Assembly: GCF_963921235.1 (NCBI RefSeq)
Contig: NC_086107.1
Location: 101,558,001 to 101,622,000, forward strand
Reading direction: 5' to 3'
From: Mobula hypostoma
Lineage: Eukaryota
Length of the DNA: 64,000 nt
How positions within the stretch are numbered: the stretch's first letter is position 1; each line of letters begins with the position of its first letter. The notes below the pieces were generated by a model. The model saw nothing but the letters and a program-made list of their open reading frames with translations, made no database searches and was not told the DNA's origin. A program made the position numbers and the translations under genes. Shown here piece after piece: positions 5,323 to 43,099 of this stretch.

Positions 5323-6044
5323 GTGAAATTCCATTTAGGGATTTGCGAAGTACACTAATTACAAGTCAATAATCCTATGAATAAGAATATAATTTTATGT
5401 AGATAATTAAATAAGTTTTGTGCAATAAAACATCCTGCGCAATGTAAATCACTTCACTACCGAAATCTTTAGAAGCCAATTTCAAAGAAACATTTCTGAA
5501 TCCTTTATAGATGTCATAGTACATACATCTTGAAATTAAAATTATGAGAAATTTATCTTTAGTCAATTGTAGTAAACATATGAAAGATCTTTGACCACCA
5601 GATATACTCATCTCTGAATATTTGGCTTCACTGACTTACAGTGGAACCAAGAGTTCCATATAATTGCCAGCCAAATCTCTCTTGCAAATCTCCTTTGTTA
5701 CTTAGTATGTAATCAAAGAAATTCCACCATCCCCCTCAGCCCCCACAACTCCCTTTCATTTCTTACAATGTAGGAACAGAGATACAGCTTGCAGCACTAA
5801 CATTTTTCATTTTTTACATAAAATCTCCAAGATATTATCTAATAGACAAGAAGCTTCAAATTTGCTCAGAGGTAATGAAATCTTATACGGTTTTATAAAT
5901 AAAATATTTTGTGTAATAGCAAACTAGCATTTCCACATTAATTTACCTCTCATATATCAAGAGGTTCATCTAGCTTTTATTATTGCTTTCCATTTGGGAA
6001 AAAAAATGAAGAAAGAAGATAGGTTCATAACTCCTTTAAAACAT

Positions 6045-6050
6045 TTTATT
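6045..6050 (-). terminator. Candidate MEI1 polyadenylation signal AATAAA (second candidate at 5976-5981)
   Basis: TTTATT on the plus strand about 550 nt downstream of the stop, in non-repetitive sequence; AT-rich context makes chance hits common. Confidence 0.35.
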
Positions 6051-6595: not shown

Positions 6596-6653
6596 CTATT
6601 CCCTGTTGCAGCTAAAGACATCAGACAAACAGATTGCCAGTCTGCCAAAAAAT
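6596..6653 (-). CDS. MEI1: MEI1 terminal coding exon (V-FFGRLAICLSDVFSCNRE*)
   Basis: Acceptor catcacag preceded by U12-like branch site TTTCCATTAAC; phase 2 fits the upstream exon; peptide resembles recalled human end CLGGVAVSLSHIRN; TAG at 6596-6598. Confidence 0.75.
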
Positions 6654-7867
6654 CTGTGATGCATGGTTAATGGAAATGCCCAAATGACTAATGAAATAAA
6701 TGCCAGTTCAAAGTAATACGTAGTTTGTTAAATGTTTTTCTCACCTATTTCATACCTTCCTTTCAATGATGCAGAATCATTGCAAATCATCTAAATGTGA
6801 AGAGAAAGGACAAGTCCTCTTCAGGTTACAGCATGTTTCTGTTCCTGTGCGCTGTTTGTAAACCAGCTTACAAATTGGAATTGTGCTGCAAACTAGTTAC
6901 TAAGAGGCTGAAGATGGCTGATGCCCCGCAGCAGTCAGAAAATTCATACTGTTGTAGTTTTGGGAATGAGTTCTTAGAATATATTAAGAGGCAGATTTTT
7001 AGAACAAAGGTTTGTAGAACAAACCATGGAACAGATTATATTAGATCCCATTCTGTGTAATTAGATGTTTAATTAAGCAAGGGATCCTGACGATGAATAA
7101 TAAAAACATTGAATTTCATATTCAGTTTGAGTGAGAACCTTTGACTTTAAACTAATTATATTAAACTTAATTAAAGCAATTCATAAAACAAGGCAGTTAG
7201 CTAATGTGGTGTAAGAAAACAAATTGAAAAGTAAGAATATAAATATGTTATGGTAGATTTGTAAGGAAATGTAATTTTCAACAAAGCTGAAGTATGTTAG
7301 AAATAAAGTCCATACAAGAAGGTTGATCCATACTTGATAACTATGGAAGTTAAGAATGATATCAAATTAATGACCTATAACATTGCACAGATCTGTGGTA
7401 GGTCAGAAGACTGGAGAAGTTTTATATTCTGGAAATGATTATTCAAGACACACTACAGATAGAAGAATGATTATGAGAGTTCGCTAATATTGAAAATAGA
7501 GTAGTACATAGCTAAAGACTAATTAAGGTAAATATTGTTGCATCACAGGATGAGTGGGGAATTCATATGGTAAATAAGAAACTGTGGATACCACTAAAAC
7601 ATCCTAATAATAGTTTTAAAAAAAGATGGAGTCGAGAGAGCAACTTAAATCAATCACTATCACCATGGAAAAAGATCCAAACAAATATATATGCCTAAAG
7701 ACTAAGGAGACATTAACCTAATGGCCTCTTTTCCAGAATATTAAAAGTATCTGCAAAATATTAGACCAATTGATTATGATCTTCCAATTTTTTTTGGGAT
7801 TTTGCGGAGCCCCCCCGGAGTTGTATTGCCCATCTTCAAGAAAGAGAAAGAAAGCACAACACTATAG

Positions 7868-8010
7868 CACAAGGAATTCTGCAGATGCTGAAAATTCAAG
7901 CAATACACATCAAAGTTGCTGGTGAACGCAGCAAGCCAGGCAGCATCTCTAGGAAGAGGTACAGTCGACGTTTCGGGCCGAGACCCTTCGTCCTGACTTT
8001 GATGTGTGTT
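7868..8010 (-). mobile_element. Penelope-like terminal fragment with partial fold-back, inserted in an old CR1
   Basis: tctgcagatgctg...gtcgacgtttcgggccgagacccttcgtc, then inverted tttgatgtgtgttgc; near-TSD gcacaa(c/a)actatag at 7854-7867 and 8011-8024. Confidence 0.75.
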
Positions 8011-8391
8011 GCACAAAACTATAGACCAGTTTCATGACACAAGAGAGACTGACCAGTTAGGATGACATCTGTCATTGCAAAATAGAGATAATCTACTACT
8101 AACAAAGTAGTTGCAGGAGGTTCAGAAATGTAATTAAGCAGAAACAGTATAGTTTTATCCAAGGAAAAACTTATTTAGCAATAAAGGTATTTGAGGAGTA
8201 TTTGAGGATATAATGGACAAAGTGAATAAAGGAGTATCAGTGGATGCAGCTGAGGCATATTTAGCCGTTACAGAGACTTGACTGTCATAGGGTGCAGGGA
8301 GAGAGGTAAAAGAGGTGGGGAGTGACATTGCTAATCATGGATAGCATCACAGCTGCAGAAAAAACTCTGCATTTTCTACTTAGTCAGTGCT

Positions 8392-8632
8392 GGTAGCATG
8401 GTAACATTGCGGTTAATGTAACATTTTACAGAGCCAGTGACTTGAGTTTAATTCCAGCCACTGTGTGTAAGTTTGCACATTCTCCCTGTGACTATGTAGG
8501 TTTCTTATGGGTGCTCTGGTTTCCTCCCACATTCCAAAGAGATACCGGTTGCTAGGTTAATTAGTCACATGGGCATAATTGGGCCAGATGGGCCTATTGC
8601 TGTGTCATATTTCTAAATAATAACATAAATAA
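8392..8632 (+). mobile_element. tRNA-derived V-SINE (HE1-like) inserted in a CR1
   Basis: V-domain core gtttgcacattctccctgtg...gggtgctctggtttcctcccacattccaaaga; tRNA-like head; (aaat)n tail. Confidence 0.8.
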
Positions 8633-10025
8633 AAGTTAGAAACAGGTAGGGAACAACCATTCTACTGGGAATATTCTATAGACCCACCAATAGCAACAGG
8701 GAGATACTGAGGAGCAGATCGGGAGGCAGATTTTAGAAAGGTGCAAAATAACAGGGTTGTTGTCATGGATGACTTCAACTTCCCTAATATTGATTGGCAC
8801 CTCCTTAGTGCAAAAGATCTAGATGACACAGAATTTGTTAAGTGTGTCCAGAAAGGATTCCTGACACAATATGTGGACATGCTAACTAGACAGACTGTAC
8901 TGGATCTAGTACGATCCAATGAGCCTGGCAGGTGACAGATCTCTCACATCTGCAGTTTAGCCTTGGAAAAGGATAGGAGCAGAGATTATGGAAAAGTATT
9001 TAATTGGGAGAGGGTGAATTATGATCCTATTAGGCAGGAACTTAAGAGCATAAATTGGACACAAATGTACTCAGGGAGCAACAACAGAAATGTGGAGTTT
9101 GTTCAGGGGGTTCTGGATAGGTCTGTCATATTGAGGCAGGAAAAGGTGAAGAAACCATGGTTGATAAGAGAAGTGAACATCTAGTCCAGAGGAAGAAGAA
9201 AGTATATTTAAGGTTTAGGAAGCAAGGCTCAGACAGGGCTCGAGGGTTATAAAGCAGCCAGGAAGGAGCTTAAGAGGGGACTGAAGAGAGCTAGAGGTGG
9301 ACATGAGAAAGCCGCGGCGAGTAAAACACCAACGCATTCAATATGCACATGAAGAACAGGAGGATGACTAGAGTGAGGGCAGGACTGATCATAGGCAAAA
9401 GGGGAAACGTGCCTGGAGTTGCACAGAGTAGGAATGATCTTTAATGAATACTTTGTTTCAGTATTCACCAGTGAGAGAGACCTTGATGAATGTGAGGATA
9501 GAATAGAACAGTCTAATGCATTGGATAATGTTAGGGGATGTGATACAAAAAATCCCCAGTGATGGATGGAATATACCCAAGGTTACTACGCAAAGTGAGG
9601 GAAGTGATTGTTGTGCCTTTGGTGATGATCGTTGGATCCTCAATGGCCACAGGAATCATACCAGATGATACTACCAATCGATGGAGAGTATTCTGCCTGA
9701 AAGTCTGTGACTAGTGGTGTTTCACAGGGATCTGTTCTGTGACCCCTGCTCTTTGGATGAGGAAGCCGAAGGGTGGGTTAGTAAGTTTGTAGATGACACA
9801 AAGATTGGTAGTGCTGTGGATAGTGTAGAATGTTGTCGTAGGTTAAATAGGGCTCAGAGTATGCAGAGCAGGGATGAAAAGTGGCAGATGGCATTCAATC
9901 TGGAGAATTGTAAAGTGATACAAATTGGGAGGTCAAACTTGAAGGGAGAGTACAAACTTAATGGCTTGATTCTTGGCAGTATGGAGGAACAAAGGGATCT
10001 TGAGGACCACATCCAAAGATCCCTC

Positions 10026-11116
10026 AAAGGCTTATTCAGAAAGTCAGAAGGCATGGGTTCCAAGGAAGTTTGGCCAGGTGGATTCAGAATTGGCTTGCCT
10101 GCAGAAAGCAGAGGGTCCTGGTGGAGGGAGTACATTCGGATTGGAGGGTTGTAACTAGTGGTGTCCCACAAGGATTGGTTCTGGGACCTCTACTTTTCGT
10201 GATTCTTATTCATGACCTGGATGTGGGGGTAGAAGGGTGGGTTGGCAAGTTTGCAGACGACACAAAGGTTGGTGGTGTTGTAGATAGTATAGAGGATTGA
10301 TAGGATGCAGAAGTGGGCTGAGAAGTGGCAGATGGAGTTCAACCCCGAGAAGTGTGAGGTGGTACACTTTGGAAGGACAAATTCCAAGGACAAACTACAA
10401 AGTAAATGGCAGGATACTTGGTAGTGTGGAGGAGCAGAGGGATCTGGGGGTACATGTCCACAGATCCCTGAAAGTTGCCTCACAGGTAGATAGGGTAGTT
10501 AAGAAAGCTTATGGGGTGTTAGCTTTCATAAGTTGAGGGATAGAGTTTAAGAGTGGCGAGGGAATGATGCAGCTCTATAAAACTCTGGTTAGGCCACATT
10601 TGGAGTACTGTGTCCAGTTCTGGTCACCTCACTACAGGAAGGATGTGGAAGCATTGGAAAGGGTACAGAGGAGATTTACCAGAATGCTGCCTGGTTTAGA
10701 GAGTATGCATTATGATCAGAGATTCAGGGAGCTAGGGCTTTACTCTTTGGAGAGGAGGAGGATGAGAGGAGACATGATAGAGGTATACAAGATATTAAGT
10801 AGAACAGATAGAGTGGACAGCCAGCGCCTCTTCCCCAGGGCACCACTGCTCAATACAAGAGGACATGGCTTTAAGGTAAGGGATGGGAAGTTCAAGGGGG
10901 ATATTAGAGGAAGGTTTTTTACTCAGAGTGGTTGGAGCTTGGAATGCACTGCCTGAGTCAGTGGTGGAGGCAGATACACTGGTGAAATTTAAGAGACTAC
11001 TAGACAGGTATATGGAGAAATTTAAGGTGGGGGTTATATGGGAGGCAGGGTTTGAGGGTCGGCACAACATTGTGGGCTGAAGGGCCTGTACTGTGCTGTA
11101 CTATTCTATGTTCTAT
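10026..11116 (+). mobile_element. Younger 5'-truncated CR1 nested in the older CR1
   Basis: [33 protein letters not shown]; tail tattctatgttctatt; the host sequence resumes after it. Confidence 0.9.
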
Positions 11117-12129
11117 TAAAGTTTGCAGGGTGTTAAGAAGGAATATGATTATTGGCTTTTATTAATTGTGGGATTAAATTCAAGAGCCACAAGATATTGT
11201 TGTAGCTCTATAAACTCTGCTTAGACTACAGTTGGAGTATAATGTTTAGTTCTGGTTACCTCGTTATAGGAAGGATGTGGAAGCTTTAGAGAGGGTACAG
11301 AGACGATTTACCAGGATGCTGCCTGGATTAAAGAATGTCTAATGAGGAAAGGTTGAGTGACCAAGCACTTTTTTCTGGAGCAAAGGAGGATGAGAAGTGA
11401 CTTGATAGAGGCATAGTGTGGATAGCCAGTGTCTGTTTTGCAGGTGGCAACAGCTAATACAAGAGGGCATAATTTATAAGGTGAGTGGAGGAAAGTATTG
11501 GGGTAATTTCAGAGCTGTGTTTTACACAGAGTGGTAAATGCATGAAACACACTGCTAGAGTTGGTGGTAGAAGCAGATACATTAGGAACATTTAAGAGAC
11601 ACTTAGATAGGCACACAGTTGAAAGAAAAATGAACGGTTATGTAGAAGGGAATTTTTAGATTTGTCTTGGATTAGTTTGGCACAACATTGTGGGATGAAG
11701 GGCCTGTACTGTTCTGTGTTCTATAGTGTATTCTATTTGGATTTCCAGAAAGTATTCAATGAGGTTCTATGCAAAAAGGTTATTATCCAAAGTAAGATGT
11801 CATAGCACTGAAGATAGCATGCACAATGGATTGGTCAACAAATGGGTTATTTTAAGGCTGGCAAGTTGTAGTTTATGAAATGCCACAGAGATCAATGCTC
11901 AGCCCTTAACTATTTACAAGCTATGTAAATGACTTTGATGAAGGGAATAAGAGTAGTATTTGATGATAAAAGGTGGGTGGGAGAGACAGTCGCGAGAGGG
12001 GTACAAATGGTCTGAAATAAGATATGGATTAGCTAAAGGACTGAGCAAAAAAATGGCAGAAGAAATATAATCCAGGACAGGAGGGGTTATCTACTTTGTT
12101 AGAAAGAACAGAAAAGAAAAATATTGTTC

Positions 12130-13040
12130 AGAAGCTAGAACAGCACCACACAGGAACAAGCCCTTTGGCCAATGTCTGTGCTGAGTACAATGCCAAAATA
12201 AACTAAATCTCTTCTGTCTGCACATGATCCATGTGCCTCCATCTCTTACATTTTTGTGTGTCTATCTGCTTCCACCACTTTCCCTGGTAGCCTACTGCAG
12301 ACACTATTTCCTATGTAAAAAAATTGTCCCATACATCTCCTTGAAACCTCCCCTCCTCAACTTTAAATGAATGCTCTCTAGTATTTGTCATACCTACCTC
12401 GGGATAAAGATTTTGACTGTCAACCCTCTCTATGGGTTTCATAAACTTCTATCATGTCTTCCCTCATGCTCCAACATTCCAGAGAAATCAATGTTTGTCC
12501 AACCTCTCCTTATACCTCATACCCTCTAAACCACGCAGCATCCCAGCGCTGATCCCTGTGGAATACTACTGGTCAAAGACATTCATGCCAGAATAAAACT
12601 GTTCCACTACTACCCTTTTTTTAAAAAAAAGTGGGTAAGAAAATTCTGAGTCCAAACTACCAAGTCACCATGGATCCCATGCATCTTAATTTTCTGGATC
12701 AACCTACCAAGAGGAATTTTGGCAGAAGCTTTACTGAAGTTTATGTCCTATCAATCAATCACTTTTGTCTCTGCTTATAAGACTCACTCAGTTTGTCAGA
12801 CAAGACCTGCTCCCCATAGACATGCTCACTGCCCCTAATGAGGCCATGATTTTTGAAATACATGTAAATCTTAACCTTAAGAATCCTCTCAAAAAACTTC
12901 CCTAACACTGATGTGAAGTTCGCTGCCTTATAATTTCCTGGATAATTCCTATTTTCGTTCTTGAAAAAAAAGCATTAATATTTGGTACTTTCCAGTTTTC
13001 CAGAACCTTGCCTGTTGTTAATGAGGATGCAAAGACAGTT
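12130..13040 (-). mobile_element. Degraded CR1 fragment
   Basis: CR1 3' UTR and RT remnants on the minus strand. Confidence 0.65.
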
Positions 13041-15084
13041 TTATAAAGCTGGGGAATTTAAATGCACAGATATTGCAGAAGCATGTAGGTGCCTTTGTAT
13101 ATGAAACACAAGAATCAAGTCCAACAAATAAATAAGAGGCAAGGCATTAACAGCAAAAGGGATAGGGTATAAAACTAAAGATATTCTATTGCATCTGTAC
13201 AAGGCGTCGTGAAACCACTCATGGAGTAATACATACAATAGAGAGATATACTTGCATTGACAGCAGTTCAGAGAAAGTTCACTGGTAGATTATTGGGATG
13301 AATGCATTATATTTTGAGTAAATATTGAACGAGTTTGAACTTGAAAGAATGAGAGGTGATTTTAAAACAAGTAAGATTCTAAGGAGAATTGACTAAGAAG
13401 ATGTTGAGAGGATGTTTCCTCTTGTGTAGGATTCCTGAACTAGGAGGCCTAGTTTCTGAATAAGATGTCACCCACTCAAGAAAAAAAATATATAGTGTTG
13501 TGAATGTTTGGCATTCTTCACCCAGAGTGTTGTAGAGACCAAAAGATTGATATACATAAGGCTGATACAGGCGTACTTTTGATCAATAAGGCAATAATGG
13601 ATTAAGGGGAAAAGGGAGAAAAATGGAGCTAAAACCATGAGTTTAGTGAATTACAAAAATGGCTCACGTGCACATATGGTTGTCTACTTACTTTACTTCT
13701 TATGTTTGTATCAAACACTATCCGCAGATTTAAAACTGGAATGAAAACAGGAAATAATGGAGACATGCAGTGGGTCAAGCAGAATTCCACTGGGGTGAAA
13801 TTAAAAACTTGAATTACATTAGTAATATCCTCTGGTGTATCACTTGATTTGTTAACAAATTTGCACAGTATTTATATGCATTGCTCAAAGTTTAGTTTTA
13901 GAGAAGTAGGTATCAATCTATGGGCCAATGTCCTCACTTTTGGAGGAAAAGAGTGCTCTTTTGAGAATACTGTATAACTAGTCTAACTGATAAGGGAAAC
14001 ACTGTTCATGTAGTGAATTAGATTTTTAGAAGGACTTTGATTGCTTCTAGCAAGAAGTTAGTGTGCAAAATTAAAGCGTATTAATTGGGATAATATTCTG
14101 ACATTGATTATAAACTGGCTGACAGTGAACAGAGTAGAAATAAATGGCATTTTTCTAGATGAGAAGTTATCGTTATGTACTACAGGAATGAATGCTTGAT
14201 TTCTGGCTACTCACAATATATATTAATGATTGGGATGAGGGATGAGTAGGATTGTGAGTTATGAAAAACCAAAGAAACTTGAAGATTATTTAGACATATT
14301 AAGTGGACAGGCAAATGTAAGGACAATGCAGTAGATACATAGACAACATAGATAAATGTGAAATTATAATTTTAATACGAAAAATCAGAAAGGCAGCTTT
14401 AATGCTCGTAGATTGGGAAATATTGATGCACAAAGGGAGTTGGGTATCTTTCTATACAAGTTACAGAAAGCAACATGCATGTTCTCCAAGCAGTTAAGCC
14501 AATTGCTCTCACTGTAAAAAGTTTTGAGTGCAAAAGAAAGAATGCCTTACTACAATTATACAGGGTCCTGGTTTGACCTCACTTCAAATGAGTACTGTGT
14601 ACAATTTGGTATCCTTGTCTAAGGAAGAATATAATTGCCACAGGAAGTTCAACAAAGATTCATCTGACTGATTCCTTGAGGAGCTGGAATGTTGTTTGGT
14701 GAGAGATTCAGTTGACTTAACCTGTACTCAATCAGATTATTAGTATGAGGGGAATCTCATTAAAAAGTATAAAATTATGACGTCCATACAGACTGAATGC
14801 AGAAATGAAAAATCAACATTTTGGTATGAGATCCTTCAACGGTCTAGATGAAGAGTTTTGACCTGAAACCTTGATTGTCCATTTCTCCCCGCAAATGCTG
14901 CCTGACCCAGTAAGTCCTTCCAGTGCCTTGTGTGCAGGAATATGGCTTTGAGCTAGAGGATTAGACATGATCATGTTGAATATCAGAAAAAAACAAGAAG
15001 GGTTTTTAGAAAGTCAGAAATTGGAGGTGCAAAGGGCTTGGGAGTCCTAGTGCAGGATTCTCAAAAGGTTAACTTGTAGGTTGA

Positions 15085-16380
15085 AGCAACACTCACAACA
15101 TGCTGGAGGAACTCAGCAGGTCGGGCAGCATCCATGGAAAAGATCGGTTAACGTTTCAGGCCAGAACCCTTCGTCAGGACTGTAGGGGGAAAGGGCAGAG
15201 GCCCTATAAAGCAGGTAGGGGGAGGGTGGGAAGGAGAAGGCTGGTAGGTTCCAGGTAAAAAACCAGTAAGGGGAAAGATAAAGGGGTGGGGGAAGGGAGG
15301 CAGGGAGGTGATAGGCAAGAAAGGTGAAGAAAGAATAGGGGAAAACACAATGGGTAGTAGAAGGAGGCAGAACCAAGAGGGAGGTGGTAGGCAGCTGGGG
15401 GAGGGGGCAGAGTGACATAGGGATAGGGGAAGGGAGGGGGAGGGAATTACCGGAAGTTGGAGAATTCTATGTTCATACCAAGGGGCTGGAGAATACCTAG
15501 ACGGTATATGAGGTGTTGCTCCTCCAACCTGAGTTTAGCCTCATCATGGCAGTGGAGGAGGCTATGTATGGACATATCTGAATGGGAGTGGGAAGCAGAG
15601 TTGAAGTGGGTGGCTACTGGGAGATCCTGTCTGTTTTGGCGGACGGAGCGGAGGTGCTCGACGAAGTGGTCCCCCAATCTGCATCGGGTTTCACCGATGT
15701 AGAGGAGGCCGCACCGAGATCACCGGATGCAATAGATGACCCCAACAGACTTACAAGTGAAGTGTTGCCTCACTTGGAAGTACTGTTTGGGGCCCTGAAT
15801 GGTGGCAAGAGAGGAGGTGTAGGGACAGGTGTAGCACCTGCGCTTACAGGGATAAGTGCCAGGTGGGAGATCCGTTGGGAGGGACGTATTACCAGGGAGT
15901 CGCAGAGGGACCGATCCCTGTGGAAGGTGGAGAGGGGTGGAGAGGGAAAGATGTGCTTAGTGGTGGGGTCCTGTTGAAGGTGGCGGAAGTTGCGGAGGAT
16001 AATGTGTTGGATCCGGAGGCTAGTGGGGTGGTAGGTGAGGACAAGGGGAACTCTGTCCCTGTTGTGGTGGCGGGAGGATGGGGTGAGAGCCGAAGTGTGG
16101 GAAATGGAGGAGATGCAGGTGAGGGCATCATTGATGACAGCGGAAGGGAAACCACGATCCTTAAAGAAAGAGGACATTTGAGATCTCCTGGAATGGAAAA
16201 CCTCATCCTCGGAGCAGATGCAGCGGAGACGGAGGAACTGGGAATAGGGAATGGCATTTTTGCATGTGGCGGGGTGGGAAGAAGTATAGTTGAGGTAGTT
16301 ATGACAGTCAGTGGGCTTGTAGAAGATGTCAGTGGACAGTCTATCTCTAGAGATGGAGACAGAGAGTGTTTTGTGTTTAC
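15085..16380 (-). mobile_element. Penelope-like element, 5'-truncated: RT thumb, GIY-YIG endonuclease, pyrimidine-rich UTR and hammerhead motif
   Basis: TDIFYKPTDCHNYLNYTSSHP...IPYSQFLRL; VIYCI...CGLLYIGET...HLRSVRQ...VATHFNS; 14-bp TSD aacttgtaggttga at 15071-15084 and 16381-16394, within a CR1. Confidence 0.93.
15145..15182 (-). ncRNA. Minimal type I hammerhead ribozyme motif with damaged stem I
   Basis: CAGTC-CTGACGA-A-GGG ttctgg CCT-GAAAC-GTT-AACCG; core intact, stem I mismatched. Confidence 0.55.
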
Positions 16381-16394
16381 AACTTGTAGGTTGA

Positions 16395-17100
16395 GTTGGT
16401 AGTAAGGAAGACAACTACAATGTTAGCATTCATTTCCAGAGGACTAGAATGTAAAAGCAAGGATGTAATTCTGAGGCTTTATAAAGCATTGGTCAGACCA
16501 CACCTGGAGTATTGAGAATAGTTTTGGGCCCTGAATCTAAGAAAAGATGTGTAAGGGTCCAGAGGAGGTTTACAAGAATGATCTTGGGATTGAAAAGACT
16601 AACATGCAAGCAGTGTTTGATGGCTCTCGGCCTGTACCCATAGGAGTTTAGAAAAAATGGGAGGTGGTGGTGGGGGAATCTCATTGAAACATATCAAATA
16701 TTGAAAGGCGTAGACAGAGTGGTCATGAAGAGGATGTTTCCAATAGTGAAAGAATCTAGGACAAAGGGCACAGCCTCAAAATAGAAGCCTGTCCTTTTAG
16801 AACAAGATGAAGAGGAATTTCTTTCGTCAGAGGGTGGTGAATTTGTGGAATTCATTGTCACGGATGGATGTGGAGGCCAAGACAATAGGCATATTTAAAG
16901 CAGAGGTGGATAGGTTTTTGATTAGTAAGAGTGTTAAAGATTATAGGGAGAAAGCAGGATAATGGAATTGAGAAGGAAAATTAATTCACCATGACTGAAT
17001 GGTGCAGCAGATGTGATAGGCTGAATAGTCTAATTTGCTCCTATGTCTTATGGTCTAAGGGCTGAATGAACTTATTCCTACTTTTATATGCTATGTTATG
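16395..17100 (+). mobile_element. CR1 3' part; its upstream continuation lies before the PLE at about 15000-15084
   Basis: LVRPHLEY remnants and tail ttgctcctatgtcttatggtct. Confidence 0.85.
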
Positions 17101-17381
17101 TTTCTGTTTAAAACTGTCTCACTTCTACAGTTCTGAAGGAGAGTCATTGAGTAGGAACATTAATTATTTCTCTTTACACAGATCCCCAACACTTCCAGAT
17201 TTTATTTCAACTGTCTAATCCCTGCAATTTTTAGTTTTAATTTACAGTTATTTAAAATTGGATTCATTTTCCTAATGCAAGCACCCTGAACAACAGAATA
17301 AATGGGTAAACAGCATATAGCAGGCTTTAAAAAAAAATCAAACTGCTAGCCACTTGTCAATGTGCATTAAGCAAAGGATAC

Positions 17382-17500
17382 ACAATTTTCATGGCACTGG
17401 GTTGAGTTGAGGTTCTGCCTTCCAGCTCCTTCAACAAGGAATTAATAACCTCCATGTCTTTCTGTCCTATATTGAGCAGTTTGCCACTTTGCAGATTCAA
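17382..17500 (-). CDS. MEI1: MEI1 penultimate coding exon (LNLQSGKLLNIGQKDMEVINSLLKELEGRTSTQPSAMKI)
   Basis: Acceptor tttactttttag; ends GT|gtatcctttgc (U12-type donor); 119 nt, phase 0 to 2. Confidence 0.8.
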
Positions 17501-20973: not shown

Positions 20974-21105
20974 CTGTTTTAGAAAATTAATCAAAGCTTC
21001 AGCAGCCTCACTGCTCAATTCCTCCAACTTTAGCTGTGCTGCCATCTGTAGGACTCGCTTTACATCAGATGCAGAAACAATGTTCTTAGTGTGGTACTTC
21101 AGAAA
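20974..21105 (-). CDS. MEI1: MEI1 coding exon (FLKYHTKNIVSASDVKRVLQMAAQLKLEELSSEAAEALINFLKQ)
   Basis: Acceptor tttttcaacag, donor CAG|gtaaag; 132 nt, phase 0 to 0; within ORF 20869..21225. Confidence 0.9.
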
Positions 21106-21989
21106 CTGTTGAAAAACACAAAATATCCATAGTTGATAAAACATAATAGTATTAAAGAGTAGCATTAAAAACTTGCAGGACCAACTGGCAAAGTAATAAC
21201 CAAAGAGTAGAATTATTGCGATCACAGCCTACAGATAGGGCTCTGAATACCTTATTGGGTATTTACTGTTAGGTAAATGCTCTGATGTAAAGCAATTAAC
21301 CTAGAAGCCTCAGACAAGTAAGAAGAGGGAGTAAAAGGGAAAGCGGTATTGCACTGCAAGTGAAAAGTTGCATTCTTTAAGTACTGAGGCAGGATATCCA
21401 AGGTGGTTTCTCAAACAAGCACATATGGATAGAGATTGGAAACAAAATGTGTGTTATTACTTTTCTGGGGTGTATTATAGACTTCCCCACAGTCAACAAG
21501 AGACAGAGAATATGTTGGCAGATATCAGAGAGAGGCAATAACAAAAAAAAAGAAGGCATTGTACTAAGGAATTTTAATTCCCCAATTGTTAACTGGAATC
21601 ACCTCAGCACAAAAGGCTCTGAAGGGGAAGAATTTTGAGAAGTGCCCAAAGGAGCTTTTTGAATTAGTACAGTATGTAACTAGATCAGCATAGGATGGAA
21701 CATTACTAGAACTTATCTTGGGTAATGTAGCTTGTAAGTGGAGAGAATTTCAGTGAAGGAATACTTTGAAGATACTGACTATAATTCCATATATTTTAAA
21801 ATGGATATAGAAAAAGATAGTGATGGGCTAGTAATCAAGGTCTTAAATTAGTTGAAGGCCAATTTCATTAACATAAGGAGGACCTGGTAAAAGTAGATTG
21901 GGAGTAACTACTTGCAGGTAAATCTGTATTTGCACAGTGGGAAGTATTCAAAGGACAAACAGCAAGAGTTCAAGGCAAACATGTTCCTA

Positions 21990-23340
21990 CAACTGGGTGA
22001 CTGTCAGGAGAAACAGGGAAAATGCACAGCCAATGCAGAGTACACCTGTGGACATTCCCCTCAAAAATAAAAATATAACTTTAGAGATTATTGGGGAGGG
22101 GCAGTGACTGTGGCTCAGGAGAGCAAAGAGGTGAAGAGAACTGCAATGTTGATACAAGATTCCTTAGTCAGAGGAACAGAGATGAGGTTTTGTGGGGGCA
22201 ATAGAGACACCCAGATGGTGTGTTGCCTCCCTGGTGCCAGGATCAGGGATGTCTTGGATTGTGTCCATGACATTCTCAAGGGGGAGGGTGAGCAGCCAGA
22301 AGTCTTTGTACATATTGGCACCAATATCATAGATAGACAAGATGAGGAGGTCCTGAAGAAAGATTTTAGGGAGCTAGGTAGCAAGCAGGGTAGTAATCGC
22401 TGGATTGCTGCCTGTGCCATACGCCAGTAAGGGTAAGAATAGGATGAGTCGGCTGAGGAACTGGTGCGGGGACAGAGGTTCAGATTTATAGATCATTGGG
22501 ATCTCTTCTGGGGAAGATATGACCTGTGCAAAAGATGAGCTCGAGGGAGTCCAATATCCTCACAGGCAGGTTGGCTGGAGTTGTTCGGCTAGGTTTAAAC
22601 TTGGTTTACAAAAAGAGACTCCTAGCAAGGAGAGGCTGATGTTAGGGCAAAGTTGCAGTCAACAGGATGAGTTGCAAGGTAAAAGGTGGACAAAATCAAA
22701 AAATTGTGAATACAGGATGAAAGGTGTTACATTTGAATTCGTGCAGTATATGGCTTAAGGTCGATGAACCTGTAGCACAGTTACAGATTGGCAAGTATGA
22801 TGTTGTAGGTATCTTTGAATCACGGCTGAAAGAAGATTATAGCTGGGAGCTTAATGTCCAAGGATACACATTGTATCGAAAGGATAGACAGGAAGGCAGA
22901 GGGGGTGGCATGGCTCTCTTGGTAAAAACAATTGAATTATATCAAATCATTAGAAAGAGGTGACATAGAGTCGGAAGGTGTTGAACCGTTGTGGAGACAG
23001 CCAAGGAACTGCAAGGGTAAAAGGACCCTGATGGGAGTTATATACTGACCCCCAAACTGTAGGAAGTGTATGGTCATGCACTTTGGTAGAAGAAATGGAA
23101 GGGTTGACTATTTTCTAAATGGAGAGAAAATACAAAAATCTGAGGCACTAAGGGATTTGGGAGTCCTTGTGCAGGATTCTCTAGAGGTGAGGAAGGCAAA
23201 TGCAGTGTTAGTATTCATTTCAAGAGGACTAGAATATAAAAGAAAGGATGTAATGTTGAAACTTTATGAAGCACAGGTGAGGCCTCACTTGGAGTATTAT
23301 GAGCAGTTTTGGACCCTTTATCTTAGAAAGGATTTGCTGA
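21990..23340 (+). mobile_element. CR1 with ORF1 SGNH-esterase remnant, endonuclease start and internally deleted ORF2
   Basis: DSLVRGTE...CCLPGARIRDV...VHIGTN; YTLYRKDRQEGRGGG; jumps to VMHFGRRN...VRPHLEY. Confidence 0.85.
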
Positions 23341-23344
23341 CAGT

Positions 23345-23570
23345 AATATGGAGGTATCAACATTAGTGTACCAGTTCACAGAAATGGAGGGAGTTCGGGT
23401 GGAAAAACCTGATAAGACCTTTTATTACACCCTCTCAGAAATCCCATTATGATAGTAACCTCCCTGTTTGCTGGAGAAATTGTGGAAATCAAAATGCAAA
23501 CCATTATCATATTTTCTGGGAATGCCCCGTTATCAAAGACTATTGGAGTGGGATACATAATGCCCATGAT
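23345..23570 (+). mobile_element. L1-clade ORF2 cysteine-rich fragment
   Basis: CWRNCGNQNANHYHIFWECPVIKDYWSGIHNA. Confidence 0.7.
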
Positions 23571-23796
23571 GCAAAGATCATCTATCGCCAAATATGCAGC
23601 AATCTCTTCCCTCGCTTTCTATAGTAAACTAGGATATATCCCGTGTGGTCCTGGGGACTTATCTATCCTGATGGCTGAGTTCATACGATAATTAGGAATA
23701 GACAACAAATGCTAGATTTGCAATTCCCCTCCTGCGAATAAGTTAAAAAAATCTTTTTATGTGAAACCTGCTGTAACCCATGTTAATGATCCTTAC

Positions 23797-23903
23797 CATA
23801 GCAAGAAGACTGAGGACGCCAGAACTGAGAAGGCATCTCTGTGCAGAATTCACCAATGTAAAAAGAAGGAATCGACTCCAGGGCTGTGACATCACATGAC
23901 AGA
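23797..23903 (-). CDS. MEI1: MEI1 coding exon (VCHVMSQPWSRFLLFTLVNSAQRCLLSSGVLSLLAM)
   Basis: Acceptor tttctttag, donor ATG|gtaagg; 107 nt, phase 1 to 0; SQPW.RFLLFTL motif. Confidence 0.92.
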
Positions 23904-24639
23904 CTAAAGAAATGACATATGGTTTAGTGGACTCAAAGCAAGCCTTTAATATAATGTACTTTCCTTCAGATTGCAGACCAAATTAACTTTCATTATAATC
24001 TGTTCAGAAGGTTGGCTTATTTCCACTGCATGATTAATTGACCAAAATGATAACATCGGGTCCAAATTCGCAGCATATTTTTAATAACAGATTTTACATA
24101 GGTTTTTATTGTACTACACTACTGAGTGGAATAGAAATTGTTTCTGGTTTTCCATCCGAAAGTCTGTCCTCCTGAATTCCCAGTTCTATGCTTACTGCAT
24201 ACTGATATCAGCAAGACTGAAATATGAGGTGTAGCTGCATCTGAGATCAGCTCATACGGATAAAGAGTCTGAAGAACAGAGAATTTGAATAGCAAATTTT
24301 CCCACTGAAAAGAAACCAGAGTGCATTTATTTTTATTCTGCTCAAAATGCTATGTCCTTGCTTCTTGATAACAACTGGGCAATCTTAATATCATCCTTTC
24401 CAGCTGGAGAAGCTTCTCAAGAAAGGACATCCCATATCCTTCTAGAATATCATTAAACCACAGTTACAGGTGAGGTAGAGGATGAAGTAAAGGAGAATGA
24501 AGTAGCACCCATCAGATATGAAATCAGATAACCTGCCTTATGAGAATCTTTGTCAGGTTCCATAGATGGCATGGTGACGCAGCAGTTAACACTTTGGCTT
24601 CAATATGTAAGTGGCAAATGAATCAAAAGTTATAGGGAT

Positions 24640-24855
24640 ACTTTATACTTCATTGTCGCCAAACAATTGATACTAGAACGTACAATCATCACAGTGATAT
24701 TTGATTCTGCGCTTCCCACTCCCTGGATTACAAATCGATAGTAAATCTTAAAAATGTAAATTATAAATCATAAATAGAAAAGAGAAAAATGGAAAGTAAG
24801 GTAGTGCAAAAAAACCGAGAGGCAGGTCCGGATATTTGGAGGGTACGGCCCAGAT
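24640..24855 (-). mobile_element. Rex1/Babar 3' UTR fragment
   Basis: Reverse complement of 25905-26120. Confidence 0.8.
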
Positions 24856-25411
24856 GAGAGAGAACAAGCTGAAGGGCTGTAGGGGAATAAGATGACAAGA
24901 AATTGGATTAATGAAATTATTCTGCTGTAGACTGGTGTGGAGACCAATAGGACAAATGGTATTTACCTTCTGTGTTACAATAAATGTTTGATAAGAACAT
25001 GACTTACACTTATTGAAGTAACAAGAAAGATAGAGATAGAAATTTACAGGATAGGTGCAGGCACTGTGACCCACCATGTCTGTACTGACAATGATGCAAA
25101 TTAAACAAATCCTATGATCCTATGTGCCTGCACGAAGTCCATACCTCTCTATGCCCTGCCTGTTCATATGTCTGCTTAAATGTCTCTTTTTGCTTCTACT
25201 GCCTCCCTTGGTAGACAGTTCCAGGCACCCACCACTCTTGTAATTCTTTAAACTTTCCCCTTCAAATCTTACCTATGTCATCTCATATTTGAATAGCCAT
25301 TAAAAACTCTATCTTCTCTATATATATTTCCAATAATTTAACTTAGTTCTTAGCAGGCCAGCTTTCAATACTACAGAGAAAACAACCTCTTCTTATAGGT
25401 AATACCTCTTC

Positions 25412-26125
25412 TTATTGTTGGTGCACAAGCGGAACAGGTCAAAAGCTTTAAGTTCCTCGGGGTCAATATCACAAATGACCTGACTTGGTCCAACCAAGCA
25501 GAGTCCACGGCCAAGAAAGCCCACCTGCGCCTTTACTTCCTGAGAAAACTAAAGAAATTTGGCCTGTCCCCTAAAACCTTCACTAATTTTTATAGATGCA
25601 CTGTAGAAAGCATTCTTCTAGGGTGCATCACAACCTGGTATGGAAGTTGTCCTGTCCAAGACCGGAAGAAGTTGCAGAAGATCGTGAACACAGCGCAGCA
25701 CATCACACAAACCAATTTTCCGTCCTTGGACCCACTTTACAGCACACGCTGTCGGAGCAGTGCTGCCAGGATAATCAAGGACAGGACCCACCCAGCTAAC
25801 ACACTTTTCGTCCCTCTTCCCTCGGGGAGAAGGCTTAGGAGCTTGAAGACTCATACGGCCAGAGTTAGGAACAGATTTTTCCAATTGTGATAATACTGAA
25901 CGAATCCTGACCGGGATCCGGACCGTACCCTCCAAATATCCGGACCTGTCTCTCATTTTTTTGCACTACTTTACTTTCCCTTTTCTATTTATGATTTATA
26001 ATTTAAATTTTTAATATTTACTATCGACTTGTAATCCAGGGAGCACGAAGCACAGAATCAAATATCGCTGTGATGATTGTACGCTGTAGTATCAATTGTT
26101 TGGCGGCAATAAAGTAAATAAATAA
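25412..26125 (+). mobile_element. Rex1/Babar LINE 3' end
   Basis: FKFLGVNITNDLTWS...RLYFLRKLKKFGL...FYRCTVESILLGCITTWYG; 3' UTR ending caataaagtaaataaa. Confidence 0.88.
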
Positions 26126-26576
26126 TACACTACAATTTTGGTAAGTCTCTTCTGCGCCTTTTCCAAAGCCGGTGTGGTGAACAAAACTGCACAGAGTACT
26201 CTAAATTGGCCTAATCAAAGTTTTATACAGCCTCAATATGACTTCCCAACTTCCATACTCAATACTTTGACCCAAGATGACAAGCATGCTGTATGCCTTT
26301 TTTGCCACACTATCCTCTCGTGTTGCTACTTTTAGGGAGCTATGGACTTGTACCCCAAGACCCATCAGGTTTCTGACTCATTTTATAGATTGGGAAAAAT
26401 TAATACCTTTGACATCAAAGCAAGGTAGCAGCAGATTAAATCTATCTAAATTAAGAGTTACTGCAATTTCCAAAGCGGAGGATACACTTTCCTGCTGCTC
26501 TTCTCAAATTTAAATCCACCTTAATTATACAACTAATATTATACTGAATGAATCACAACTGCCGCAAGTTCATCTC

Positions 26577-26715
26577 GACAATACACACAAAATGTTGGAG
26601 GAAGTCAGCAGGCCAAGCAGCATCTATGCAAAAGAGTACAGTTGGCATTTCGTGCCCAGACCCTTCATCAGCACTGGAAAAAAAATGAGGAGTCAAAGTA
26701 AGAATTGTGAAGGAA
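26577..26715 (-). mobile_element. Penelope-like terminal fragment with degenerate hammerhead motif
   Basis: caatacacacaaaatgttggaggaagtcagcaggcc...cccttcatcagcactg. Confidence 0.65.
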
Positions 26716-27930
26716 CAGCCCTTTTCAAGTTGAGTCACAAATTCTCAAGTAGATTGAGGTCTGGACTCTGACTTGGCCACTCAAGGACATTAACTTGTTT
26801 TTAAGCCCAATTTCTGTGTAGCTTTGGCTTTTTGCCTGGGGTCATTGTCTTTCTGGAAAATAAATTCTCTCCCAAGTCTAAGTTCTTTTACAGATTGCAT
26901 CAGGTTTTCCTCCAAGACTTCCCTGTATTTTGCTAAATTCATTTTACTCTCTACCTTCACAAGCCTTCCAGGGCCTGCTGCAGTGAAACATCCCCACAGC
27001 ATGATGCAGCCACCACCATGCTTCATGGTAGGGATGGTCTGTTTTTGATGAAGTGCGGTGTTTGGCTTACACCAAACATAGCGTTTAGTCTGATGGCCAA
27101 AAAGCTCAATTTTGCTTTCATCAAACTGTAGAGAACTTCTTCCAGTTGATTTTAGAGTCTCCCACATGCCTTCTGGCAAACTCTAGCAGTTTTTTTTCCC
27201 CAACAGTGGCCTTCGCTTTGCCACTCTCCCATAAAGCTGCGACTGGTGAAGCACCCTATGGGCAGTCTCTCCCATCTCAGCCACTGAAGCCTGTAACTCC
27301 TCCAGAGCTGACATAGGTCTCTTGGTGGTCTCCCTCACTAGTCTCCTTCTTGCAAGGTCACTCAGTTTTTGAGGACAGCCTGCTCCAGACTTACAGCAGT
27401 TTATTTATTTTTTCCATTTCTCGATGATTGACTTAACTGTACTCCAAGGGATATTCAGTAACTTGGAAATTTCCTTGTATCCATCTCCTGACTTGTGCTT
27501 TTCAGTACCCTTTTCACAGAGTTGCTTGAAGTGTTCTTTTGTCTTCATGGTACAGTTTTTGCCAGGACCCTAACTCACCAACAGTTAGATATAGGTGTAT
27601 TTTGACTACAATCAATTGAAACACCTTGATTGCACACAGGTGATCACCATTTAACTAATTATGTGACTTCTAAAACCAATTGGCTGCAACAGTGATGATT
27701 TGGTGTGTCATATTAAAGAGGGTGAATACTTATGCAACCAATTTACTTTGTGTTTTATATTTGTAATTCATTTAGATCACTTTGTAGAGATCCTTTTCCA
27801 CTATGACATGAAAGAGTCTTTTTCTGTTGATCAGTGTCAAAAAAGTCAAATTAAATCCACTCTGATTCGATGTTATAAAGCAATAAAACATGAAAACTTC
27901 CAAGGGGGAGAATATTTTTTATGGGCACAG
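26715..27930 (-). mobile_element. Tc1-like (IR/DR) transposon, 3'-truncated
   Basis: DESKIELFG, KHGGGCIMLWGCF and DNDPRQ; long TIR ending ...gggcacag|TA at 27931-27932. Confidence 0.92.
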
Positions 27931-28079
27931 TACATCAAATGTAACTACATCTTAAAAAAAAGCAAGTCATCAACATGGCTTTAGTGCTTAAACGCTGAAA
28001 CAGTGATGAGTATCTCCAAGATCTTCTGCTATTGTTTTATGATTTCAATGAACAATTTTTCTTTATACTTCAGCATTAC

Positions 28080-28161
28080 CTGTGGCCTGGTCTCTCATGT
28101 GCAAGTATTCCACCAGTGCTTCCAGACAGTTAGATGCAGCACAGAAAAGCAGGTCATTTCC
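28080..28161 (-). CDS. MEI1: MEI1 coding exon (GNDLLFCAASNCLEALVEYLHMRDQAT)
   Basis: Acceptor caattacag, donor G|gtaatg; 82 nt, phase 0 to 1. Confidence 0.9.
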
Positions 28162-29428
28162 CTGTAATTGAATGTAAAATGCATTGGTGTCTATTAATAT
28201 ACATTTTTTACTACATCATCAAGACAATGGATATGATATCTGCTCTAGATGGAAATTATGCTTACTGAACCATCATCACTCTTTGTCTTGCTTATTCCCA
28301 TTTGCAGTTAATTTCAGCAGACCAGATTCATCTTCAAGATTAGGATTTATCAACATAATTTGGATGACCAACAAAACTCTGCGAACAAGCCAAACCAGAG
28401 AGGAGGAAGAAAATGTCCCAATCAAAGTGGTATTTTTTCTAGGACTAAAAGGGATATTCTCTCGGTCTCAAAAATTTTCTACACCTTTTCAGCATGACCA
28501 TTTATGTTTCTCTCAGGAGATTGCATATCATCTTGAATTAGAAAGACTTGTATCATAAAACATTACAGTGCCTATAAAAAGCATTTACTCCCCCTTGGAA
28601 GTTTTCATGTTTTATTGTTTTACAACATTGAATCAGAGTGGATTTAATTTGACTTTTTTGACACTGATCAACAGAAAAAGACTCTTTCATGTCAAAGTAA
28701 AAACAGATCTCTGCAAAGTGATTTAAATTAATTACAAATATAAACACCAAATAATTGATTGCATAAGTATTCACCCCCTTTAATATGACACACCAAATCA
28801 TCACTGGGTGTAGCCAAATGGTTTTAGAAGTCACATAATTAGTTAAATGGAGATCACCTGTGCATAATCAAGGTGTTTTAATTGATTGTAGTTAAAATAC
28901 ACCTCTACCTGGAAGGTCCAACTGGCGGTAATGCACCATTAAGCTGGATGCCAACCGCTGTAAAACAAGATACAGGTCCAACTGCTGGTGAGTCAGAGAT
29001 CTAGTAAAAACTATACCATGAAGACAAAGGAACACTCTAAGCAACTCTACAAAAAGATTATTGAAAAATGCAAGTCAGGAGATAGATGCAAGAACATTTC
29101 CAAGTCACTGAATATCCCTTGGAGTACAGTTAAGTCAATCATAAAGAAATGGAAAGAATATTGCACAGCTGTAAAAAAAAATCTGCCTAGAGCTGGCCAT
29201 CCTCAAAAACTGAGTGATTGTGCAAGAAGGGGACTATTGAGGGAGGCCACTGAGAGACCTATGACCACTCTGGAGGAGTTACAAATTTCATTGGCTGAAA
29301 AGTGAGTGTGGCAAAGAGAAACCCACTGTTGGAAAAACTCTCATGAAATCTCATCTACAGTTGACCAGAAGGCATGTGGGAGAGTGTGAAATCAGCCGGA
29401 AGAAGCTTTTATGGTCTAATGAAACCAA

Positions 29429-31738
29429 TAAGAACATAAGAAATAGGAGCAGAAGTAGGCACCTAGCCCGTCGAGCCTGCTCAGCCTTTCAATAAAATCA
29501 TGGTTGATCTGATAATGGACTCATCTCCACCTACCTGCCTTTTCCCTATAATCCTTAATTCCCCTATGCAAAAATCTATCCAACCTTGTCTTAAATATAT
29601 TTGCTGAGGTAGCCTCCACCACTTCATTGGGCAGAGAGTTCCACAGATTCACCCCTCTCTGGGGAAAAGCAGTTCCTCCTTATCTCTGTCCTAAATCTAC
29701 TCCCCCAAATCTTGAAGCTATGTCCTCTAGTTCTAGTCTCCCCTATCCGTGGAAACAACTTTTCTGCCTCCACCTTATCTATCCCTTGCATAATTTTATA
29801 TGTTTCTATAAGATATCCTCTCATTCTTCTGAATTCCAGTGAGTATAGTGCCAGGCTAGACTCCTCATGGTCTAACCCCTTCATCTCTGGAATCAACCTG
29901 GTGAACCACCTCTACACTGCCTCCAAAGCCAGTATAACCTTTCTCAAGTAAGGAGACCAAAACTACATGTAGTACTCCAGGTGTGGCCTCACAAGTATCC
30001 TGTACATTTGGAGCATAACCCCTCTGCTCTTAAATTCAATCCCTTTAGCAATGAAGGTCAACATTCCATTTGCCGCCTTGATAGCCTGCTACACCTGCAA
30101 GCCAACCTCTGTGATTCATGCACAAGCACTCCCAAGTCCCTCTGCACAGCAGCATACTGCAATTTTTTTTTACCATTTAAATAATAACCTGCTCTTTCAT
30201 TTTTCCTTCCAAAGTAGATGACCTCACATTTACCAGCATTGTATTCCATCTGCTAGACCCTTGCCCACTCACTTAACTCTCTGCAGTCTCTCTACATCTC
30301 TCTGCTCAATTTGTTTTTCCGCTCAATTTGTTTTTCCACTCAATTTAGTATCAGCAAACTTAGATACATTACACTCGGTCTCCTTTTCCAGATTGTTAAT
30401 GAATATCATGAACAGTTGTGGGCCCAGCACTGACCTCTACAGCACACTAACACACATGTATCCGAACTCTCTGCTTTCTATAAGTTAACCAAGCCTCTAT
30501 CCATGCTAATACATCAAGCCTAACTCTATGCATCCCTACCTTATGAATAAATCTTCTATGCGGCACCTTATCGAATGCCTTCTGGAAATCCAAGTAAATA
30601 ATGTCTATCTGTTCCCCTCTATCCTCAAAGAACTCCAGTAAGCTTGTCAAACAGGACCTGCATTTGCTGAATCCATGCTGTGTCTGCCTGATGGATCCAT
30701 TTCTTTCCAGATGCCTCAGTATTTCTTCTTTAATGATAGCTTCAACTATTTTCCCAACTACAGATGTTAAACTAACCGGCCTATAGTTATCTGCCTTTTG
30801 CCTACATCCTTTTCTGAACAGTGGTGTCACATTCACCATCTTCCAATCGCTGGGACCTGCCCAGAGTCCAGAGAATTTTGGTAAGTTATCACCAAAGTCT
30901 CTACTATAACTTCTACCATCTCTTTCAGTACCCTGGGATGCATTCCATCAGGACCAGGGGACTTATCTATCTTCAGGTCCACAAGTTTCCTCAGCACTAC
31001 CTCATCAGAGATAGCTTTTGTATCAAGGTCCTCAGCTCCCATTGCATCCATAACATTTCTCTTTGGTATGTAAGATGTGTCCTCCACCATGAAGACCGAC
31101 ACAAATTAGTCATTCAAAGCCTCTGCCACTTCCTCATTACCCAATAGCAATTCCCCCTTCTCGTCCTCCAAGGCACCTACGTTCACTTTAGCCACCCTTT
31201 CCCACTTTATATAATTATAAAAACTTTTACTATTTTGTGCTAGTTTTTATATTTTGAGCTAGTTTATTTTCATAATCCACTTTCCCTTACTTTATTGTTC
31301 ACTTAGTGGTTTTTTTGTTGCTTTTTAAAGTTTTCCCAGTCTTCCAGTTTCTCACTACTCTTGGAGACTTTGTACGCACAAGCTTTTGGTTTGATGCTGT
31401 CTTTTATTTCCTTAGTTAACCAAGGCTGGCTCTCCCCACCTGTACTATCCTTGTTTTTAACTGGAATATACTTCTCTTGAGCACCGTGAAAAATCTCTTT
31501 GAAAGTCTTCCACTGTTACTCAACTATCCCACCATACAGCCTGTGTTTCCAGTCTACACTAGCCAAATCCTCCCTCATCTCAGTGTAGCCTCCATTGTTT
31601 AGGTACAATACACTGGTTTTCAATCCAACTACTGTACCCTCCATTTGTATGAGAAACTCAATCATACTGTGATCAGTCTTTCCAAGAGGATCCCTAACCA
31701 TAAGATCACTAATTTTACCTGTCTCATTGCACATAGCT
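29429..31738 (-). mobile_element. CR1 LINE (about 2.3 kb, degraded ORF2) inserted in the Tc1 transposase
   Basis: KSPGPDGMHPRVLKE, NYRPVSLTSVVGK, YLDFQKAFD; tail aagaacataagaaatagg on the plus strand. Confidence 0.93.
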
Positions 31739-32393: not shown

Positions 32394-32457
32394 AGCAACA
32401 TGCTTCAAATTTTGTGTGTGTTTTTTGGAGTTCCAGCATCTGCAGATTTTCTCGTTT
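32394..32457 (+). mobile_element. 64-bp Penelope-like terminal insertion in the Tc1 right TIR
   Basis: ttttgtgtgtg...ttccagcatctgcagattttctcgttt; 13-bp TSD caaattaaatcca at 32381-32393 and 32458-32470. Confidence 0.75.
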
Positions 32458-43085: not shown

Positions 43086-43099
43086 ATACTGATACTAGC

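Follow-up and report, generated by a model that had tools for sequence, protein, structure and literature searches.

The window analysed here, a stretch of Mobula hypostoma DNA of 64 kb, carries on its minus strand 11 exons of MEI1 which form one open frame of 436 aa, and the product has 75-78% identity to MEI1 of skate and electric ray. The exons and the features of the last intron are located as follows.

60695..60863, minus strand: first MEI1 coding exon within the window (tblastn against Narcine MEI1 P0001 residues 846-907, E 3e-17; AG/GT ends, single ORF)
20974..55543, minus strand: span of eight further MEI1 exons, at 55543-55439, 46821-46711, 43477-43308, 38744-38666, 33146-32968, 28161-28080, 23903-23797 and 21105-20974
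17382..17500, minus strand: penultimate MEI1 exon, 119 nt, ending in phase 2 with the letters ATT GT (63% to Narcine P0001 1228-1268)
6654..17381, minus strand: last MEI1 intron, 10,728 nt, phase 2, GT-AG with U12-type signals
17371..17381, minus strand: U12-type GT donor GTATCCTTTGC (sequence; unique on the strand)
17357..17359, minus strand: in-frame TGA met upon intron retention, after 7 intron-coded residues that follow the junction codon (sequence)
17201..17206, minus strand: AATAAA about 150 nt past this stop, a possible intronic poly(A) signal (sequence)
6666..6676, minus strand: candidate branch site of U12 type, TTTCCATTAAC, its branch A being at 6667 (sequence; near-identical MIDB entry)
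6596..6653, minus strand: coding part of the last MEI1 exon, closing with TAG (70% to Narcine P0001 1268-1287)
5976..6050, minus strand: AATAAA twice (at 6050 and 5981), marking candidate MEI1 3' ends (sequence)

Upstream of the exon at 60695..60863 the gene extends past the window limit. The nine introns upstream of 17500 are all GT-AG and all have U2-type donors, and other U12 introns in this part of MEI1 were thus rejected. The last intron is the longest of the 10 MEI1 introns in the window. As the first-pass annotation had it, the exon that follows is in the correct phase: positions 6653-6596 continue the frame of the penultimate exon, encode FFGRLAICLSDVFSCNRE and end with TAG. The proposed relationship of this peptide to MEI1 C-termini was borne out as well, by the 70% match to the Narcine C-terminus and by a motif common to the protein models of jawed vertebrates. 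MEI1 conservation amounts to 0.82 in the last exon, 0.50 in the penultimate exon and 0.72 overall, the first value being biased upward and not taken as proof of function, since the 64 rows compared were picked for having that exon.

The 9-mer GTATCCTTT at 17381 occurs once among the 3,409 GTs of the minus strand, exactly at the exon end, where it agrees with RTATCCTTT, the donor of the GT-AG subtype of U12-type introns; both the coordinates of the exon ending in ATT GT and the perfect donor are as claimed earlier. Given GT, the chance of this 9-mer is 1.1e-4 under a dinucleotide model. The 12-mer of the ray donor has 17 occurrences in the MIDB table, with scores of 93.7-95.6 (top range), and each U12 score given here for the ray intron is that of a MIDB row whose sequence is identical or nearly so.

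In U12-type introns about 10-20 nt separate the branch A from the 3' end, and the spacer has no pyrimidine tract. In the ray intron the putative branch A at 6667 is found 13 nt before the intron-end CAG at 6654, with a spacer of mixed sequence. The site is close to TTCCTTAAC, the agreement being moderate and not strong, as the core reads CATTAAC instead of CCTTAAC (1 mismatch); hence, of the branch site first described, the position and the missing tract stand, but the core is imperfect. The 12-mer of the human BIVM-ERCC5 branch site in MIDB differs from that of the ray in its last letter only and scores 73.0, just below the 75 used, with different matrices, as minor-class seed by Olthof 2024. 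Of 2,014 YAG sites, 56 (2.8%) have a branch core with at most one mismatch 9-21 nt ahead of them, as do none of the 10 other MEI1 acceptors, whose boundaries are approximate by 1-3 nt. The same loose rule is satisfied by 9 sites inside the last intron, the candidate branch included, so that the choice of acceptor rests on homology and not on the motif. The pyrimidine share upstream of this acceptor is 0.64, within the range of the other MEI1 acceptors (0.41-0.77).

The intron contains retroelement remains.

8711..11117, plus strand (antisense to MEI1): decayed LINE, which we take to be CR1-like, with endonuclease and RT remains (Pfam; within-window tblastn/blastn)
11127-12071, 12299-12968, 13242-13534, 14412-14588, 15008-15084 and 16380-17076: further pieces, presumably also CR1-like (within-window tblastn/blastn)
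15085..16380, minus strand: Penelope-like remnant, 5'-truncated (Atlas 0.96, PF26215)

Within the LINE, Pfam RVT_1 is matched at 10004-10297 (E 7e-9), and Exo_endo_phos_2 at 8711-8932 is weak, below the Pfam cut-off. The Penelope-like remnant sits nested within a CR1-like 3' fragment and is framed by two copies of a 14-nt direct repeat (16394-16381 and 15084-15071). Its order is an HTH_animal-like region, a GIY-YIG-like region broken by a frame change and a stop, and a pyrimidine-rich tail; the PLE and GIY-YIG labels are our assumption from motif, and a Pfam search gave no match. The intron had been described as packed with CR1, PLE and SINE copies. The first two are present as CR1-like and PLE-like remains, but a SINE was not confirmed, ARAGORN returning 0 genes and Rfam 0 hits at gathering score, scans which the tRNA-, 5S- or 7SL-derived head of a SINE can escape once decayed. 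Also, the load is not unusual, this candidate peculiarity being rejected: the within-window repeat share, a lower bound that counts only repeats with a second copy inside the window, is 0.45 in the last intron, and the nine U2-type introns of the gene have a median of 0.45 as well (range 0.00-0.71). The remnant shares its putative GIY-YIG-like part with the Penelope-like elements carrying minimal hammerhead motifs described by Cervera and de la Pena 2014 (PMC4209133), and its tail likewise has a CTGACGA...GAAA core, although it is a single, truncated and decayed copy. For a single minimal motif that paper reports a lack of cleavage, and the core in the ray folds no better than shuffles (z +1.3); an active intronic ribozyme was rejected on these grounds.

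The position and size of the intron are equally ordinary. Terminal placement is common, since 122 of the 722 mouse minor introns in the source table sit in first or last position. Length as a class feature was rejected too, as minor-intron length follows major-intron length across species and human minor introns reach 7-9 kb; large as it is, the ray intron is near these (KANSL2 and CUL4A, among the matches listed). In fact, it does not differ in kind from vertebrate U12-type introns of the GT-AG subtype, such as those of BIVM-ERCC5 and of the meiotic genes Spo11 and Majin, with which it shares the donor class, a non-zero phase and the short branch-to-AG distance, the branch 12-mer being nearly that of BIVM-ERCC5.

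Looking up MIDB for an orthologous minor intron, as had been suggested, was productive. MEI1 is a minor-intron gene there in human and mouse (Olthof 2019, PMC6717393, supplementary files 1 and 8), with an exon end GCT followed by GTATCCTTT, lengths of 3,406 nt in human (chr22:41795848-41799253) and 1,348 nt in mouse, and branch scores of 40.9 and 67.4, respectively. The gene and the GT-subtype donor are thus the same as in the ray, whereas the ray intron is much longer, at 10,728 nt. The mammalian exon end appears compatible with the phase-2 codon split of the ray, judging from mammalian read-through models: those of ground squirrel (P0120) and pangolin (P0139) end in Asp-Met-Leu-Tyr-Pro-Phe, and the catalogued intron fits the ray junction because ATG CT plus GTATCCTTT encodes their ...Met-Leu-Tyr-Pro-Phe (the 120 models listed include no human MEI1 protein). 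We infer, on grounds that are indirect but strong and include the aligned junction, that the listed intron is the last one and that the ray intron is its orthologue. In the literature, the main texts searched gave no MEI1 together with U12-type or minor-intron wording, the intron being documented in supplementary tables instead; searches for Mei1 in the supplements of PMC8850803 (6 files) and PMC13087456 (2 files) and in the main text of PMC12956336 drew a blank. The MEI1 minor intron is therefore already known and not new, and the U12 call for the ray, though right, is ordinary, as this is likely the same intron. That the C-terminus should depend on minor splicing does not hold as a surprise.

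The reading that survives best next to a minor intron, itself quite improbable, is that of a hybrid or dual-use intron, with a U12 donor and a 3' end for whose recognition factors of the major spliceosome are partly responsible, a proposal made for the human orthologue. Olthof 2024 (PMC11347168) class the human intron as 'minor_hybrid' and see a response in 1 of 9 datasets, that of ZRSR2-mutant MDS, but none in the Roifman set; the mammalian branch scores are those given above, and the ray core is itself imperfect. Against this, one analysis (Cologne 2019, PMC6800510, supplementary files 2 and 3) has two datasets in which U4atac mutation affects the human intron, with retention PSI rising from 0.037 to 0.226 in TALS LCL of one RNU4ATAC patient (FDR 1.5e-12) and from 0.082 to 0.372 in RNU4ATAC Roifman blood cells (FDR 3.3e-9). 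In addition, the distance from the ray branch to the intron end is short, as is canonical, a pyrimidine tract does not follow, and the site agrees with one listed in MIDB for a minor intron. The ray branch site looks stronger than the mammalian one and is nearer to consensus (about 73, from the nearest MIDB entry, versus 40.9 and 67.4).

Clearly less probable is that the main ray mRNA ends inside the intron, at the stop at 17357 and the AATAAA at 17206, the distal exon being minor or unused. Both signals are present, and read-through models are common in other species, among them 13 of the 120 MEI1 models listed and 6 of the 8 members of an eel cluster. The distal exon, however, has no damage, keeps the frame and shows 70% identity to the C-terminus of Narcine MEI1, the read-through tails have nothing in common across species past Tyr-Pro-x, and the hexamer at 17206 is plausibly due to chance, as AATAAA is expected 0.92 times per kb on the minus strand. 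The warning that a naive gene model would stop at the TGA at 17357 was well founded, given that 24 of the 120 models listed either stop precisely where the exon ends (11) or run on into intron sequence (13). Judging from protein models that continue as Tyr-Pro, teleosts, coelacanth, amniotes and a sea cucumber have the donor as well. Finally, a chance U12-like motif at an ordinary U2 intron has next to nothing in its favour, the GT-AG ends and the 9 loose branch-like cores in the intron being outweighed by the donor probability of 1.1e-4, the departure from the U2 pattern of the nine other MEI1 donors and the recurrence of the Tyr-Pro signature across vertebrates.

In minor splicing, U11 and U6atac read the donor and U12 reads the branch site. 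By far the best-supported reading is that the terminal phase-2 GT-AG intron of ray MEI1, with its U12-type signals, is likely spliced by the minor spliceosome and is the likely orthologue of the MEI1 minor intron of human and mouse, its class being assigned from motifs and homology. Of nine cartilaginous-fish species, five (Narcine, Leucoraja, Amblyraja, Scyliorhinus and Callorhinchus) have annotated MEI1 proteins that span this junction, and the models of the other four lack the join. In such a scheme, GTATCCTTT would be read by U11 and U6atac, and the branch 13 nt from CAG by U12; splicing would add the conserved last 19 residues of MEI1, and retention would yield a protein that stops after 7 intron-coded residues. 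On this reading, growth of the intron came about through ordinary retroelement insertion, as in its U2-type neighbours, with the short splice signals kept.

As it stands, the last intron of ray MEI1 is an annotation point, the 24 of 120 database models dropping the conserved C-terminal peptide or carrying an insertion ahead of it. The apparently stronger ray branch site would fit a decay towards a hybrid intron in mammals, as one data point on minor-intron evolution. A broader scenario, which we regard as unlikely in its entirety, is that the terminal minor intron predates vertebrates (sea cucumber signature), is fully U12 in cartilaginous fish and decays to a hybrid in mammals, and that its splicing is left incomplete and combined with intronic polyadenylation, as a conserved switch to tail-less MEI1, tuning meiotic breaks together with the SPO11 and TOP6BL minor introns. 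A rate-limiting effect of the ray intron would be hypothetical, and according to PMC12956336 DSBs continue to be induced in the testes of U11-null mice. The same source links the break-forming meiotic genes Spo11 and Top6bl to minor splicing in the mouse testis. If retention in germ cells were regulated, MEI1 would join these break-forming genes, and this could have a bearing on infertility in minor-spliceosome disease.

At the end of MEI1 the first-pass annotation had placed an intron with U12-type (minor spliceosome) signals, and the positions it had given hold:

17500-17382, minus strand: penultimate exon of MEI1, ending ATT GT and followed by GTATCCTTTGC
17381-6654, minus strand: last MEI1 intron, 10,728 nt, up to the CAG at 6654
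6676-6666, minus strand: putative U12 branch site TTTCCATTAAC, whose candidate branch A is 13 nt short of the intron end
6596, minus strand: TAG, coding end of the last MEI1 exon, in frame with the preceding exon
17359-17357, minus strand: TGA, the stop reached on intron retention

In support of the U12-type donor, GTATCCTTT occurs once among the 3,409 GT dinucleotides of the minus strand, exactly at the exon end (probability 1.1e-4 under a dinucleotide model), and the last exon is indeed in phase, its frame being open up to the TAG. The branch site is present at the proposed distance from the intron end; its core has one mismatch to CCTTAAC, and with the same tolerance a core lies 9-21 nt before 56 of the 2,014 YAG sites in the window. 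Such a core is absent before all 10 other MEI1 acceptors in the window. Since nine sites within the last intron satisfy the loose branch rule, the one at 6676-6666 included, the acceptor is fixed by homology and not by the motif alone. Used as a protein query, the 61-residue exon translation matches MEI1 from the electric ray Narcine and from a sevengill shark. Using tblastn we located 11 MEI1 exons in the window, from 60.9 to 6.6 kb, which joined at exact AG/GT ends give a single open frame of 436 residues. Its identity with MEI1 is 75-78% for skate and electric ray and 70% for catshark, which marks the host as a ray-like cartilaginous fish. Of the 10 introns between these exons, the first nine carry donors of U2 type and are in phase 0 or 1; the last is in phase 2. 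Annotated proteins cross this same junction in five of nine cartilaginous-fish species (Narcine, Leucoraja, Amblyraja, Scyliorhinus and Callorhinchus) and do not in the other four (Pristiophorus, Heptranchias, Hypanus and Hemitrygon).

We have sorted by sequence pattern the best 120 of 510 MEI1 matches, which are models and isoforms rather than independent species: 82 are spliced, 13 (from 12 species) read from the penultimate exon into the intron, 11 end exactly at the junction and 14 are otherwise, one of the latter (quail) being spliced when judged by eye. Straight after the junction residue, 12 of these 13 read-through models have Tyr-Pro-(Phe/Leu/Ser) and one has Tyr-Leu. A phase-2 GTATCC donor translates as Tyr-Pro; were the donor of the U2 form GTAA or GTGA, a stop would stand there instead. 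Among these best 120 of 510, Tyr-Pro read-through is present in coelacanth, turtles, gharial, birds, opossums and ground squirrel, and in more distant relatives paired isoforms split at this junction (eel, dragonet and the sea cucumber Apostichopus). Because both patterns recur, these protein models indicate that the donor is probably common to jawed vertebrates and may be older. Of the two Apostichopus models, P0227 and P0284, which part where the junction aligns, one reads Tyr-Pro-Leu; this suggests the U12 donor in an echinoderm.

A probably orthologous intron is on record: the MIDB tables (Olthof 2019, PMC6717393) list MEI1 as a minor-intron gene in mouse and human, with a donor reading GCT then GTATCCTTT, lengths of 1,348 and 3,406 nt and branch scores of 67.4 and 40.9, respectively. 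In the same table a donor 12-mer identical to that of the ray is given 93.7-95.6, and a branch 12-mer unlike the ray's in the last letter only is given 73.0, so that the ray branch site appears stronger than the mammalian one. ATG CT plus the MIDB donor encodes Met-Leu-Tyr-Pro-Phe, the mammalian read-through sequence, and the catalogued intron is thus, as judged from sequence, very likely the counterpart of the ray one. The human intron was typed U12 in Cologne 2019 (PMC6800510), whose data report its increased retention in RNU4ATAC patients, with PSI up from 0.037 to 0.226 for one lymphoblastoid line (TALS) and from 0.082 to 0.372 for blood cells (Roifman). Against this simple reading, the tables of Olthof 2024 (PMC11347168) class it as minor_hybrid and responsive in one of nine datasets, the ZRSR2-mutant and not the Roifman one. 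PMC7507305 lists MEI1 as a minor-intron gene with a link to a Mendelian disorder; a full-text literature search found no main-text discussion of its intron as U12. The ray call is correct, and in all likelihood the minor intron was already catalogued in mammals.

None of the other nine MEI1 introns in the window, at 2.7-8.6 kb, is as long as the last one. The fraction of its sequence that has a further copy within the window comes to 0.45, equal to the median for those nine (range 0.00-0.71); for all ten introns these shares are lower bounds. Directly upstream of the penultimate exon, the intron at 17501-20973 has a share of 0.00, unlike the other nine. The description of the last intron as filled with CR1, Penelope-like and SINE copies stands for the first two: it contains a decayed LINE, with a reverse transcriptase match and a weak endonuclease match, and several further LINE pieces, all CR1-like, together with Penelope-like remains; no SINE was confirmed in it. 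The Penelope-type features of the window are:

15071-16394, minus strand: truncated Penelope-like remnant in a CR1-like 3' fragment, nested between two copies of a 14-nt direct repeat
15177, minus strand: minimal hammerhead-like core, within the minor intron and in the sense of the pre-mRNA
26671, minus strand: minimal hammerhead-like core
53482, plus strand: minimal hammerhead-like core
near 7995, minus strand: hammerhead-like sequence with a changed core

Elsewhere in the window the 14-nt repeat is absent, and the remnant is a clean nested insertion; the core at 15177 looks decayed and single. By eye from translations, Tc1-like transposase remains were noted in several MEI1 introns, as were LTR-element-like reverse transcriptase/integrase remains at ~40-42 kb; the two kinds together fall in 26793-32307 and 39454-42185. 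Neither the size, the filling nor the position of the last intron is surprising, given its median repeat share, the tracking of major-intron length by minor-intron length across species (rho 0.903 as reported in PMC10639083), the human U12 introns of 7-9 kb on record, and the 122 of 722 mouse minor introns in first or last position.

Removal of the intron would most likely proceed by the established minor-spliceosome mechanism, the donor being read by U11/U6atac and the branch by U12. Splicing is predicted to add the conserved last 19 residues to MEI1; should it fail, the protein would run 7 residues into the intron and stop. About 150 nt past the read-through stop there is an AATAAA (hexamer background 0.92 per kb). 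No relationship is seen among the read-through tails of different species, evidence against a second protein being conserved. For U11-null mouse testes, the main text of PMC12956336 discusses Spo11 and Top6bl and does not name Mei1; it reports successful break induction and fewer BRME1 foci at leptotene.

Eleven 'partial' bird models (P0045, P0048, P0060, P0062, P0063, P0066, P0072, P0074, P0083, P0096 and P0117) stop exactly at the junction, the last exon being systematically lost from their annotation. Four others (P0028, P0056, P0070 and P0126; three bird, one unnamed) end in a common unrelated basic tail, with Pfam PF15002 in the three bird ones, and look like MEI1 joined to a neighbouring gene through annotation. 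The C-terminal end of MEI1 is frequently mis-annotated, a modest addition of this analysis alongside the wide conservation of the junction seen through read-through models and the apparently stronger branch site of the ray.
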